This document shows, piece after piece, positions 1-54,497 of a stretch of 57,526 nucleotides of DNA. Position 1 is the first letter of the stretch, and every line of letters starts with the position of its first letter. A program made the translations under genes and the position numbers. The notes below the pieces were generated by a model. That model had not been told where the DNA came from. It ran no database searches and worked only from the letters and a program-made list of their open reading frames with translations. Origin of the DNA: Patescibacteria group bacterium (GTDB taxonomy: Bacteria > Patescibacteriota > Doudnabacteria > UBA920 > VMFF01); NCBI GenBank assembly GCA_038065615.1, contig JBBTQQ010000002.1, positions 1 through 57,526 of the forward strand. The letters run 5' to 3'.

Positions 1-67
1 CTGTCGGACTTGAACCGACCACCTGCGGTTTACGATACCGCTGCTCTACCAGATGAGCTAAGCCGGC
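1..67 (-). tRNA. tRNA-Thr (anticodon CGU), 3' end cut by window edge
   Basis: Reverse complement reads GCCGGCTTAGCTCATCTGGTAGAGCAGCGGTATCGTAAACCGCAGGTGGTCGGTTCAAGTCCGACAG. It has a D arm GCTC/GAGC, anticodon stem GCGGT/ACCGC with loop AT-CGT-AA, and T arm GTCGG-TTCAAGT-CCGAC. The backbone is nearly identical to the complete tRNA-Thr at 54521-54596. Confidence 0.85.
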
Positions 68-75
68 GTGTTGCT

Positions 76-111
76 CGGGCTCGCGTTGCTTAAAAAGCCA
101 ACGCGAGCCCG
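76..111. other. Strong GC hairpin 8 nt upstream of the tRNA-Thr(CGU) 5' end
   Basis: GGGCTCGCGTTG (77-88) pairs perfectly with CAACGCGAGCCC (99-110) around a 10-nt loop. There is no clear T-run on either side, so a terminator role is uncertain. Confidence 0.6.
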
Positions 112-116
112 TCTTG

Positions 117-410
117 CTACCACCCGAAGGAACTGAAACGCCTGGGCGAAGGATCAACTGGACGGAGCCGTCGCTGATACACCCTCTCAGCGCGAACATG
201 GTTCGCATCCAGACCTTTTGCCTCCTTCCCAGGCTTCGGCACATGGGCCGCGCATTTCACTCGCCACATGAAATCCGAGAAGAACAGAACTCCACCGACC
301 CAAACCATGCTCTCTCCAGGATGCATACGTTTCGCTCCCTTCAGGATCGACTTGCGACGCGCAATGTGTTTCTTGTCGATGTTCCGTTCGGGTTTCTTCG
401 TGTAATACAC
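117..410 (-). CDS. Candidate 97-aa basic protein inside GC-1 (speculative)
   Basis: GTG at 410 is preceded by AAGGGGGA with a 5-nt spacer. The ORF reads YYTKKPERNIDKKHIARRKSILKGAKRMHPGESMVWVGGVLFFSDFMW... and I recognise no family. The opposite strand is equally open, so this call is weak. Confidence 0.2.
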   Translation of the reverse strand: MYYTKKPERNIDKKHIARRKSILKGAKRMHPGESMVWVGGVLFFSDFMWRVKCAAHVPKPGKEAKGLDANHVRAERVYQRRLRPVDPSPRRFSSFGW

Positions 411-462
411 TGCTATCCCCCTTGTCCGTGTGGTCAACCTGAATCCTGCGATTGATGATGGT

Positions 463-491
463 ATGTTAAGGGGAAAATGAAATGAAGTCAA
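463..491 (-). promoter_or_regulatory. Candidate sigma70-like promoter reading into GC-1 and towards tRNA-Thr
   Basis: On the minus strand: TTGACT, 17 nt, TAACAT. Pattern match only. Confidence 0.25.
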
Positions 492-516
492 TAAAACCAC
501 TAGGGTTTGCTAGTGG
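491..516 (-). terminator. Rho-independent terminator of the LD-carboxypeptidase gene
   Basis: Hairpin CCACTAG-GGTTTG-CTAGTGG (497-516), followed on the minus strand by TTTTAT. Confidence 0.6.
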
Positions 517-546
517 CATATGTGCTAATATGTTCAACAATAAAAA

Positions 547-1533
547 CTAATGTTCAAGAATTGTCAGCTCTTTTTTTTCTTTGCTCACGTTCATGGAAAC
601 AATTCCACCAATAGGGAAAGTAATTATTGGACTAGTATGTCCAAAGTCTACATTTCCAACTATTGGAATATTTGCTAATTGTTTTTTTGACTTAATCATT
701 TGTCTGAATAGATCAAGGGTCATATGACTTTCTTTCTGAAATCTACCAATTACAATTCCTTTAACACCTGCAAAACCTGGTTGATGAATTAAAGATTGCA
801 GATCCCTGTCAAAATGATGAGGTTGAGATTCAGAGTCATCTTCAAGGAATAATATTGAATCCTTTAAGTCAGGCATATATTCTGTGCCTTGAAGTAAGTT
901 AAAGGTACAAAGATTAGCTCCTAACAAAACACCTTCAGCACTACCTTCGTTTAATATCCAGAAGCCTTCGTTTTTGAGCAGATTCCTTTCGTCTTGATTT
1001 TTGTACCATTCATCACCACTCCACTCCTTGCTTGGTGTTACTGAATACTTTTCAGAACTCATTAAACATTTCTTAAAAAAATCAAGAGTGTAATCAAAAT
1101 ATAATTTCTGTCCAAAAGTTGAATAATGGGGGCTGGAATATGTTACTAAGCCTGTTTTAGCAAAGATCGCGTTATTCAATGCTGTGATGTCAGAATATCC
1201 GCAAAAAACCTTAGGATTGTTTTTTATGATCTCCCAATCAATTGAGTCTAACAGTTGATTGCTATTAAAACCGCCAACTACTGATATGATGACTTTAACG
1301 TCTTTGTCTAAGAAAGCGCTATGTAAATCAGAAATTCTAGATGCTACAGAGGAAGAGTTGAAATCATTTTTTTCTTCTACGTGTTCCCCAAATGTTAAAG
1401 TCAACCCTATTTCTTCAAAATGGGACTTTGCAATATCTCTAACTTCCTGACTAATAAGCGCAAGCGAACGAGCTGGAGCAATAACTCTGACGATATCGCC
1501 TTTTTTTAATTTTGAAGGATATATCTTTTGCAT
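547..1533 (-). CDS. LD-carboxypeptidase (peptidase S66, LdcA/MccF-like)
   Basis: Family-typical segments GDIVRVIAPA, GGFNSNQLL, nucleophile context GYSDITAL, and C-terminal FGHTSP. ATG at 1533 (MQKIYPS...) is preferred over the track's GTG at 1551, which lies in the upstream hairpin. Confidence 0.8.
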   Translation of the reverse strand: MQKIYPSKLKKGDIVRVIAPARSLALISQEVRDIAKSHFEEIGLTLTFGEHVEEKNDFNSSSVASRISDLHSAFLDKDVKVIISVVGGFNSNQLLDSIDWEIIKNNPKVFCGYSDITALNNAIFAKTGLVTYSSPHYSTFGQKLYFDYTLDFFKKCLMSSEKYSVTPSKEWSGDEWYKNQDERNLLKNEGFWILNEGSAEGVLLGANLCTFNLLQGTEYMPDLKDSILFLEDDSESQPHHFDRDLQSLIHQPGFAGVKGIVIGRFQKESHMTLDLFRQMIKSKKQLANIPIVGNVDFGHTSPIITFPIGGIVSMNVSKEKKELTILEH

Positions 1534-1545
1534 TGTGTACAAACT

Positions 1546-1571
1546 AATCACCCGCTTTTAAAGCGGGTGAT
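1546..1571 (-). terminator. Hairpin terminator after the coiled-coil gene
   Basis: AATCACCCGC (1546-1555) pairs with GCGGGTGATT (1563-1572 region), immediately downstream of the stop at 1576. Confidence 0.5.
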
Positions 1572-1575
1572 TTAA

Positions 1576-2784
1576 TTATCTCTTTCGTTCTATACGTTCT
1601 AGCTCAGATAGAACTGCATGCTCCTTGTCGTGTAAACGATTCCACAAACTGTACATCGTTTTATTTTTTGGCTCTTGAAAAGCATCGTCCCAGCCTTTAT
1701 ATTTACCCACCATTCCTTTGGTCCCTTGTTCATACCTTTCTAAATTCGCAAACTGCTCTACTCGATCTCGGACCCTGGTGTTAATTCCACGCAAATTACC
1801 GATTATAACTGAACTTTCACGTGTTATAACCGCGTTTTCCTTCTCACCTCTTGCAACTTTGGTTACTAACTCTCCACGTGCATAAAATTCGTCAGCTATT
1901 AATACTCCATATTCTGCTTCTAAGGAATCCATTTCTTTTATTAAATCGTCCCTTTCTTTCCTGGCTTTCTCTAAATCAGCTAAAGCTACTTCATTTTGTA
2001 CGACTATTTCTCTGTTCTGAACTATTACATAGTCAATTGCAGCCTTATCTTTGCTAGCAAATAGTCCTAATTTTTTTCTTTTCTCGGCTAAACGTTCAAG
2101 AAACATTGGCTGATCAAACGATTCCAAAACTCTAGTCATATCCTCAACTGTTCTGAATGATCTGCGGGTTTGATCAATAACTTCGCGTAATCTCTCGCGG
2201 GCATGACTCGCCCTTTGCTCAGCTTCTGCTTGTTCTTCTCTTGCCTGCATAGACTTGGGCACAAGCGCTTCCATTCGTAAATAAATAGCGTCAGCCTTTT
2301 TTTCAAGTTCAACGTTTAACTGCTCAACTTCTTTTCTCAACCCTCTTTCTCCATGCTCGACATATGCATCTTTCAAAACTTCATCTTTAACTTCGGGAAT
2401 ACCCATAATTGCATCATATTTCTGTAATGACTCTTCTCTTTGTTGTTGCAAAGATATTATCAACTCTTTTAGCAACCTTAAATCTTCTTGATCTTTAGGG
2501 TCAGTTAGTAATCCGCCCTGTTCTTGGGCTTCAAAAAAAGTTAATGTTTTCTGAGCTTCTGCAAGCATAGAAACCAAACGCCTATCTTCAGCAACCATTG
2601 CTTCACGATCCCCTACCTGCTTTGTTACTTTTGCTGCTTTCTGAGCTTTAATTTCAGCAAAACGTGCTTCTAAATCAACCCTTTGCTGCTTTAAGTCTTC
2701 AACTGTTGGTGTCTCAGGTCTTTGCTCTTGTCCTTCTCCTACATCCTCTGGTCTTGGTCCTCCCTCACCTGGTGGTATAGTCAT
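1576..2784 (-). CDS. Hypothetical coiled-coil protein (402 aa)
   Basis: Long ORF, very E/K/R/Q/L-rich with a heptad-like character. No catalytic motif recognised. Confidence 0.6.
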   Translation of the reverse strand: MTIPPGEGGPRPEDVGEGQEQRPETPTVEDLKQQRVDLEARFAEIKAQKAAKVTKQVGDREAMVAEDRRLVSMLAEAQKTLTFFEAQEQGGLLTDPKDQEDLRLLKELIISLQQQREESLQKYDAIMGIPEVKDEVLKDAYVEHGERGLRKEVEQLNVELEKKADAIYLRMEALVPKSMQAREEQAEAEQRASHARERLREVIDQTRRSFRTVEDMTRVLESFDQPMFLERLAEKRKKLGLFASKDKAAIDYVIVQNREIVVQNEVALADLEKARKERDDLIKEMDSLEAEYGVLIADEFYARGELVTKVARGEKENAVITRESSVIIGNLRGINTRVRDRVEQFANLERYEQGTKGMVGKYKGWDDAFQEPKNKTMYSLWNRLHDKEHAVLSELERIERKR

Positions 2785-2859
2785 AAATGTAAAAATATTA
2801 ATGTTGCTAATCTATATAAATAATACTCTCAGGAACAACGTTATGCAATCTTTAAACTC

Positions 2860-2933
2860 TGGAGCGGGAAACGGGAATCGAACCCGTGTCTCAACCTTGG
2901 GAAGGTCGCGTTCTACCACTGAACCATACCCGC
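2860..2933 (-). tRNA. tRNA-Gly (anticodon CCC)
   Basis: Reverse complement GCGGGTATGGTTCAGTGGTAGAACGCGACCTTCCCAAGGTTGAGACACGGGTTCGATTCCCGTTTCCCGCTCCA. Anticodon stem CGACC/GGTTG with loop TT-CCC-AA, T arm ACGGG-TTCGATT-CCCGT, encoded CCA. There is one U-U mismatch in the acceptor stem. Confidence 0.9.
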
Positions 2934-54224: not shown

Positions 54225-54298
54225 TGGCAGGGGTGCTAGGAGTTGGACCCAGTCTAAATCTTTTGGAGAGATTTGTGCGACCGTTACACTACACCCCC
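54225..54298 (-). tRNA. tRNA-Trp (anticodon CCA)
   Basis: Reverse complement GGGGGTGTAGTGTAACGGTCGCACAAATCTCTCCAAAAGATTTAGACTGGGTCCAACTCCTAGCACCCCTGCCA. Anticodon stem AATCT/AGATT with loop CT-CCA-AA and encoded CCA. The T loop reads TCCAACT, which is unusual at position 55. Confidence 0.8.
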
Positions 54299-54299
54299 A

Positions 54300-54338
54300 A
54301 GAAAAACAGCTCATAAGCCCAAGGCTTACAAGCTGTTT
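54300..54338 (-). terminator. Terminator after rpmG
   Basis: Long hairpin AAACAGCT..TAAGCC-CAA-GGCTTA..AGCTGTTT, followed on the minus strand by TTTTTC. Confidence 0.65.
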
Positions 54339-54341
54339 GAA

Positions 54342-54497
54342 CTACTTGGTTTCCTTGTGCATTGTCATCTTCTTGCAATGCTTACAAAACTTCTTAAGTT
54401 CCAAGCGCTTCGGTGTTAACTTCTTGTTTTTTCTGGAATGATAGTTTAAGTTCTTGCACTCTGTGCATTCCAGTTTAATCAAATTATCTTGAGACAT
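54342..54497 (-). CDS. rpmG: 50S ribosomal protein L33 (below ORF-track cutoff)
   Basis: Hand translation gives [51 protein letters not shown], a CxxC...CxxC zinc-ribbon L33 signature. It lies within a tRNA cluster, as in many bacteria. Confidence 0.9.

Follow-up and report, generated by a model that had tools for sequence, protein, structure and literature searches.

The GC-rich block that precedes the tRNA-Thr(CGU) gene at the start of this contig is a protein gene under purifying selection, and the whole layout of promoter, gene, hairpin and tRNA is conserved across one genus. These elements probably form one compact transcription unit, which would run on the minus strand from position 491 to position 1 of the window and continue on a neighbouring contig (C8), with read-through from the gene into the tRNA, a cut by RNase P and a hairpin that protects the end of the mRNA. 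The window is the whole stretch of DNA that was analysed, 57,526 nucleotides in length; it is contig C2, taken from the first base of the contig, in an assembly of 0.72 Mb with 38% G+C and 13 contigs. The elements of the unit, together with the upstream gene that borders it, are the following:

547-1551, minus strand: LD-carboxypeptidase gene (Pfam Peptidase_S66 match), upstream of the small gene
496-517, minus strand: intrinsic terminator of the LD-carboxypeptidase gene (terminator scan; 8-bp stem, then a T run)
463-491, minus strand: sigma-70-type promoter, TTGACT-17-TAACAT (consensus scan)
428-462, minus strand: start of the 5'UTR, the first 35 nt past the -10 box (mean pairwise identity)
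416-423, minus strand: ribosome-binding site AAGGGGGA, 5 nt ahead of the start codon (sequence reading)
117-410, minus strand: protein-coding gene of 97 codons, with a GTG start at 410-408 and a TAG stop at 119-117
77-110, minus strand: GC-rich hairpin (111-76 with one more C-G pair), with a lower stem of 12-13 bp, a 1-nt bulge and 2 further pairs
68-76, minus strand: single-stranded 5' leader of the tRNA, 8-9 nt (sequence and alignment), with a putative RNase P cut at 67/68
1-67, minus strand: tRNA-Thr(CGU), first 67 of 76 nt, cut at the 3' end (Rfam tRNA match, 47 bits)

The original prediction had placed the promoter, the ribosome-binding site, the GTG at 410, the 97-codon frame, the hairpin and the tRNA at these same positions, and each of them was found there.

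Conservation of the module in the genus

In a DNA search of 60 relatives the block was present in all four of the other genomes of the genus, with 70-91% identity, and in no other genus. Another 3 metagenome contigs carry it as well, and in every one of these genomes and contigs tRNA-Thr(CGU) follows directly. The eight loci of the genus come from independent assemblies and share a single order: the terminator of the upstream gene, TTGACTTC-17-TAACAT, a leader of about 50 nt, a purine-rich ribosome-binding site, the open frame, the hairpin, tRNA-Thr(CGU) and a terminator. The promoter hexamers are present at all 8 loci and invariant in 5 genomes. According to a sigma-70 consensus scan, which an atypical internal promoter could escape, 491-463 is the sole promoter-like site on the minus strand inside the block. 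The terminator at 496-517 insulates this promoter from the upstream gene. All orthologues have a purine-rich run, GGAGG or GGGGG, in a conserved position 5-8 nt ahead of the start codon.

The beginning of the leader (428-462) has a mean pairwise identity of 0.89, compared with 0.60 for the coding sequence, and it is near-invariant across species whose synonymous sites are saturated. This stretch folds weakly, with an invariant 6-bp hairpin predicted, and no second copy of its motif was found in the genome within 3-6 mismatches. It may be an operator or a translation signal. An origin as the relic of a tRNA fragment was considered and discarded: 12 of 15 positions match the anticodon arm, but 11% of shuffles reach the same score.

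The hairpin between the gene and the tRNA

A spacer of 49 nt, filled by the hairpin, lies between stop codon and tRNA; the hairpin starts 5-6 nt after the stop and ends 8-9 nt before the tRNA 5' end. This hairpin is a selected RNA structure. In the alignment 93% of its cells pair, whereas controls with slid partners reach 27-39%; 6 of the 15 pairs have changed on both sides, a degree of covariation that none of 500 shuffles reached. It is also the sole element kept in the centroid fold of the block. One of the loci (L018) is without the 3' arm; either the hairpin is dispensable or that contig carries an error. Among the 43 tRNA genes of the genome, tRNA-Thr(CGU) has both the most stable fold in the 50 nt upstream (-28.3 kcal/mol) and the highest G+C in the 60 nt upstream (0.60).

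Like an intrinsic terminator, the hairpin is a GC-rich stem-loop placed directly after a stop codon. Unlike one, it has no U tract, and the tRNA begins 8-9 nt further on: the stem is followed by AGCAACAC and then by the tRNA, and the terminator scan makes no call here. The terminators that flank the unit on both sides, in contrast, carry a T run.

Expression of the tRNA

The tRNA was recognised by ARAGORN, as tRNA-Thr(cgt), in 7 orthologous loci, and its first 67 nt are identical in all eight. The original prediction held that no AT-rich space remained for a promoter of the tRNA. The sigma-70 consensus scan of the minus strand gave no -35/-10 pair between 462 and 68, and the last 30 nt before the tRNA contain no TAnnnT word, unlike the corresponding stretch of most stand-alone tRNAs of the genome. 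The identity of the tRNA across all eight loci implies that it is expressed, and 491-463 is the sole conserved promoter. On the other side of the tRNA, a stem and T-run terminator follows in all loci.

From the lack of a promoter between gene and tRNA, from the hairpin without U tract and from the terminator that follows the tRNA, we infer that an mRNA-tRNA co-transcript cut by RNase P is the best reading of the locus. Co-transcription had been one of several possibilities put forward originally; in its mRNA form it stands as the best supported of them, on indirect evidence that also includes the conserved promoter. A single RNA would start from the promoter at 491-463 and would comprise a 5'UTR of about 50 nt, the ORF, the hairpin, the leader and the tRNA, ending at the terminator on C8. 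RNA polymerase would read through the hairpin, the tRNA having no promoter of its own. RNase P, the RNA of which is encoded at C4:5059-5432 (170 bits), would then cut at 67/68, the 5' end of the tRNA, and would thereby free the tRNA and separate it from the mRNA. On the mRNA, the new 3' end would then lie 8-9 nt beyond the hairpin, which would act there as a block to 3'-to-5' exonucleases; stable hairpins in this position are a standard barrier to exonuclease decay.

Alternatively, the gene and the tRNA could be two independent units, the hairpin acting as a terminator without U tract or as a strong pause, and the tRNA being transcribed from an unrecognised promoter in the end of the ORF or in the hairpin loop. 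The hairpin is indeed very stable for a stretch of 50 nt (the -28.3 kcal/mol given above), and its loop is rich in A and T and contains, in several orthologues, words that resemble TAnnnA. Moreover, two other genera of the taxonomic family have AT-rich DNA upstream of the same tRNA: one genus has a perfect TATAAT 8 nt before it, and another a promoter-like site about 90 nt upstream. However, the loop words lack the last T of a -10 box and have no -35 partner, and the 3' part of the ORF is the least conserved stretch, with no conserved promoter visible there; the region from 462 to 68 as a whole yields no promoter pair. The flanking terminators of this organism carry U tracts, and a tRNA with the same sequence in two genera has to be expressed, for which 491-463 is the sole conserved promoter. 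Two separate units are thus an unlikely arrangement, although one that keeps some weight.

The comparison with relatives, which had been proposed as a check on the tRNA upstream region, gives the same block within the genus and AT-rich DNA in two other genera. It also bears on the earlier suggestion that the block is an insertion which displaced the native tRNA promoter. With AT-rich upstream DNA in other genera, and a TATAAT in one of them, such an insertion agrees with the observations, but it is compatible with the co-transcript and does not compete with it. Six RNA runs contain only a small share of the words of the stretch. In one of them contigs cover positions 1-70 only, with unrelated flanks; this apparent signal of expression was rejected because the contigs continue into unrelated sequence and come from the identical tRNA of another organism.

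Known systems with a tRNA at the end of an mRNA

A mixed mRNA-tRNA operon is an uncommon but already known kind of unit; what is particular here is the unannotated protein family and the neatly placed hairpin. In animal mitochondria, tRNAs punctuate the polycistronic transcripts, and their excision by RNase P makes the 3' end of the upstream RNA. The MALAT1-mascRNA transcript likewise has a 3' end made by RNase P, which is protected by a triple helix. In both systems, as proposed for the present locus, the excision of a tRNA or tRNA-like element by RNase P sets the upstream 3' end. Both are, however, eukaryotic or organellar, and the triple helix of MALAT1 has as its counterpart here a simple hairpin, predicted from the sequence.

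In Escherichia coli, the secG-leuU transcript is split into mRNA and tRNA by a single cut, which RNase P makes at the 5' end of the tRNA (Mohanty and Kushner, 2008, PMC2241853). After the cut the secG mRNA has an unstructured tail of 14 nt and is lost to exonuclease decay in under 30 s (PMC2241853), which shows what a 3' hairpin would prevent. The two loci resemble each other in having a small protein gene, a single tRNA on the same strand, a Rho-independent terminator and one promoter upstream of the gene. They differ in the spacer, which consists of 14 unstructured nt in E. coli and of 49 nt with a covarying GC hairpin of 15 pairs here, and in the protein, which is unrelated to SecG. Co-transcription has been shown in E. 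coli, whereas here it is deduced from the arrangement.

The frame as a protein gene

An ORF of 113 aa on the plus strand (114-455) and one of 127 aa on the minus strand (117-500) overlap as the original prediction described. From this overlap it had been concluded that ORF length carries little coding information in the block, a doubt that does not apply to the 97-codon frame, which is a real gene. The 127-aa ORF is the same frame extended upstream through the promoter, and the extension is out of frame or stopped in 3 of 5 genomes of the genus. The antisense frame of the 113-aa ORF is open in only 4 of the 8 orthologues. The sense frame, on the contrary, is the sole frame open in all 8 loci, every other one being interrupted in at least half of them. 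Its start column alternates between GTG, ATG and TTG from species to species, and the indels inside it are multiples of three. The dN/dS ratio lies at 0.14-0.52 over all pairs and at 0.15-0.17 in the three closest ones, and changes are most frequent at third positions; the closest pair differs at 5, 3 and 14 sites in the first, second and third codon positions, respectively. A codon-periodicity test on homologues had been suggested for this block, and it speaks clearly for coding, since the substitution pattern is codon-periodic and dN/dS lies below 1.

The block could also be a structured non-coding RNA, or a long structured leader of the tRNA, the frame being a by-product of the GC-rich composition. 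In AT-rich genomes a GC-rich island is often the sign of a structural RNA; several frames of the block are stop-poor, and an RNA-like element of about 0.5 kb without a conserved ORF lies just downstream of the tRNA. Nevertheless, a search of Rfam at E<=1 with the block of the window and four orthologous loci matched only tRNAs, and the fold z-score of the block is -1.74, with 6 of 100 shuffles folding equally well; only the terminal hairpin stands out. Together with the codon-periodic substitutions and with protein homologues that extend beyond DNA similarity, these results make a structured RNA, which had been offered as an alternative from the start, very improbable. RNase P RNA and tmRNA are encoded elsewhere in the genome, so that the block is neither of the two. 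The small SRP RNA (RF00169) was not found anywhere in the genome, and the scan with all Rfam families was empty in the block.

A family of small basic proteins

The product has 97 residues and is basic, with a pI of 10.8; across the eight orthologues of the genus, the length ranges over 97-104 residues and the pI over 10.8-11.8. Only seven matches came from a word-indexed search of 5.8 billion proteins. A profile search of 1.84 billion cluster representatives gave 183 matches at E<=0.001, of which 50 had E<=1e-10; nearly all have 56-150 residues, and a few are longer. At the protein level, homologues reach far beyond DNA similarity. The members share a core that reads roughly RKRL.KKA.R.YPG....W.GG.LYF, followed by VPGV..VPKPG and then by a variable, polar and basic tail that usually ends in or near an aromatic residue. 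The protein matched no family in Pfam, NCBIfam or PHROGs, and the family members come without a source name. The best profile match in the PDB had an E-value of 0.21, to an antibody chain, which is not significant. A search of the ESM Atlas by features gave no usable match, and a phage origin of the gene was rejected, tblastn against 50,697 phage records having found no match to the protein. Judging by these searches, the gene belongs to an unannotated, lineage-restricted family of small basic proteins with about 180 sequence clusters.

Members of the family were found in 10 of 146 whole genomes of the order, and a draw of 401 genomes spread evenly over the phylum gave no family match outside this genus. 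The distant members stand alone, in varied contexts and with their own terminators, and have no adjoining tRNA. The link with the tRNA is therefore an arrangement at the level of the genus and not a property of the protein.

An AlphaFold2 model built from 46 sequences has a mean pLDDT of 85, with residues 11-70 at 90-98. It comprises a helix (13-29), a beta-hairpin (35-44), extended segments and a short helix. Comparison of the deeper model with the PDB gave E-values of 2.7 or worse in Foldseek and a best Z of 3.3 in VIA, restricted to the PDB; this is a weak search, and a new fold is unproven by it. When two models were compared with the PDB (Foldseek), with the ESM Atlas and in a wide VIA search, nothing rose above Z 3.5 or fell below E 2. 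The pI of about 11, the compact core of helix and beta-hairpin in the model and the disordered basic tail suggest that the protein may bind nucleic acid.

Base composition and the contig end

The G+C content of positions 68-460 is 0.552, compared with 0.371 for the whole window. The ORF itself has 0.551 and the adjoining 84 nt (463-546) only 0.321. A GC-rich block had been described at about 60% G+C; the block is certainly there, but the figure was slightly high, since even its peak 200-nt windows reach only 0.59. The six orthologues measured have a G+C content at third codon positions (GC3) of 0.62-0.69, against a genome median of 0.30 (sd 0.09), even though most pairs are saturated at synonymous sites. 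Distant homologues have a GC3 of 0.56-0.72 inside loci of 0.37-0.49 G+C. As the GC3 is high despite saturated dS, and also in distant members, it would be a maintained trait and not the fading mark of an import; on these comparisons, the entire protein family keeps a stably high GC3, which is no sign of recent acquisition. A tie between the gene and tRNA-Thr(CGU) through rare GC-ending codons was discarded, because the genome has a nearly full set of C34 tRNAs and none is singled out.

Other parts of the genome show similar composition. When 200-nt windows with a G+C content of 52% or higher are joined, about fifty GC-rich islands measuring 300 nt or more emerge in this genome of 38% G+C, and several of them lie at the ends of contigs. 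A GC3 above 0.55, compared with the median of 0.30, is found in about 30 of the ORFs that have 150 codons or more.

The tRNA at 1-67 is incomplete because the window begins at the end of a contig. One end of contig C8 is an exact repeat of window positions 1-55 and supplies the last 9 nt of the tRNA, followed by the stem and T-run terminator; C2 and C8 are therefore neighbours. The same tRNA sequence is found, identical, in another genus of the taxonomic family, and in the source metagenome run tRNA-Thr(CGU) has 7-16 times the depth of the block, on contigs with many unrelated flanks. The assembly graph consequently branches at this tRNA, which is why the contig breaks inside it. The sequencing runs that hold the stretch are, where labelled, groundwater or aquifer metagenomes.

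A window that begins inside a tRNA at a contig end, and a block that departs by 18 points from the composition of its flanks, could suggest a chimeric assembly, contamination or foreign DNA that became joined at the tRNA very recently, but the chance of this is minute: the junction of tRNA and block and position 455, where an artefact had been contemplated, are bridged without differences by DNA contigs from the source run and from a run of another study, the same junctions recur in 8 independent assemblies, the orthologues are deeply diverged with saturated dS and a GC3 that is still high, and the tRNA accounts for the break. These observations exclude an artefact or contamination.

Neighbouring and related loci

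Between tRNA-Gly(CCC) and the small gene, the content of the chromosome (window 547-2860) varies within the genus. Here it consists of the LD-carboxypeptidase gene (547-1551) and a gene for a coiled-coil-like protein of 402 aa (1576-2784). One metagenome contig has the carboxypeptidase and a 130-aa gene, and another the 130-aa gene only; in three genomes of the genus the stretch measures about 0.5-1.5 kb. On the plus strand, window 1485-1576 gives a weak Rfam match to the Trp operon leader, with 30.6 bits against a gathering score of 41 and an E-value of 0.0015. What is conserved in it is a hairpin with a stem and a T run, located between two genes of the minus strand, so the match probably reflects no more than a terminator-like hairpin.

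Right after the terminator of tRNA-Thr, at about 82070-82690 of C8 on the minus strand (about 2070-2690 of L032), a conserved TGTGCTAnnAT promoter is followed by a GC-rich element of about 560 nt. It consists of short invariant islands between indel-rich stretches and has its own terminator before atpI-atpB-atpE. No conserved ORF and no Rfam match was found in it, and it looks like a large structured RNA. The co-occurrence of this element with the small gene was rejected as a sign of joint function: both are confined to the same genus by DNA similarity, which makes it uninformative.

A second junction of gene, hairpin and tRNA exists in the same genome. At about 57720-58122 of C5, on the plus strand, a gene for an HU/IHF-like DNA-binding protein is followed by a hairpin of 11 pairs without a T run, 6 nt and tRNA-Pro(UGG). 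In the window itself, a hairpin of 16 pairs with a T run (54299-54345, minus strand) stands 5 nt before tRNA-Trp(CCA) (54225-54298). Since this hairpin leaves no room for a promoter, tRNA-Trp may also depend on read-through. It can be speculated, at rather long odds, that the hairpin-tRNA junction is a recurrent device of the lineage for mRNA 3' ends, which RNase P would make and the hairpin would guard, and that the basic protein, with a new fold, is at the same time a partner of tRNA-Thr(CGU) or of the downstream RNA of about 0.5 kb.

Implications

What appeared to be an odd compositional patch becomes an annotated unit with a promoter, a small protein gene, a candidate processing hairpin and a tRNA, and it would add one well-supported case to the few mRNA-tRNA operons known in bacteria. 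In contrast to secG-leuU, a hairpin under selection sits precisely at the place where the mRNA would end after the RNase P cut, which provides a testable idea of how such an mRNA may escape rapid decay. The gene is also one more example of a habit of these genomes, in which some small genes are kept GC-rich over long times. Among the genomes searched, its protein family is restricted to a single order of ultra-small bacteria from groundwater, and it has a confidently modelled core without a detectable structural relative. If both the recurrent device and the protein partnership were true, the locus would encode a lineage-specific ribonucleoprotein.
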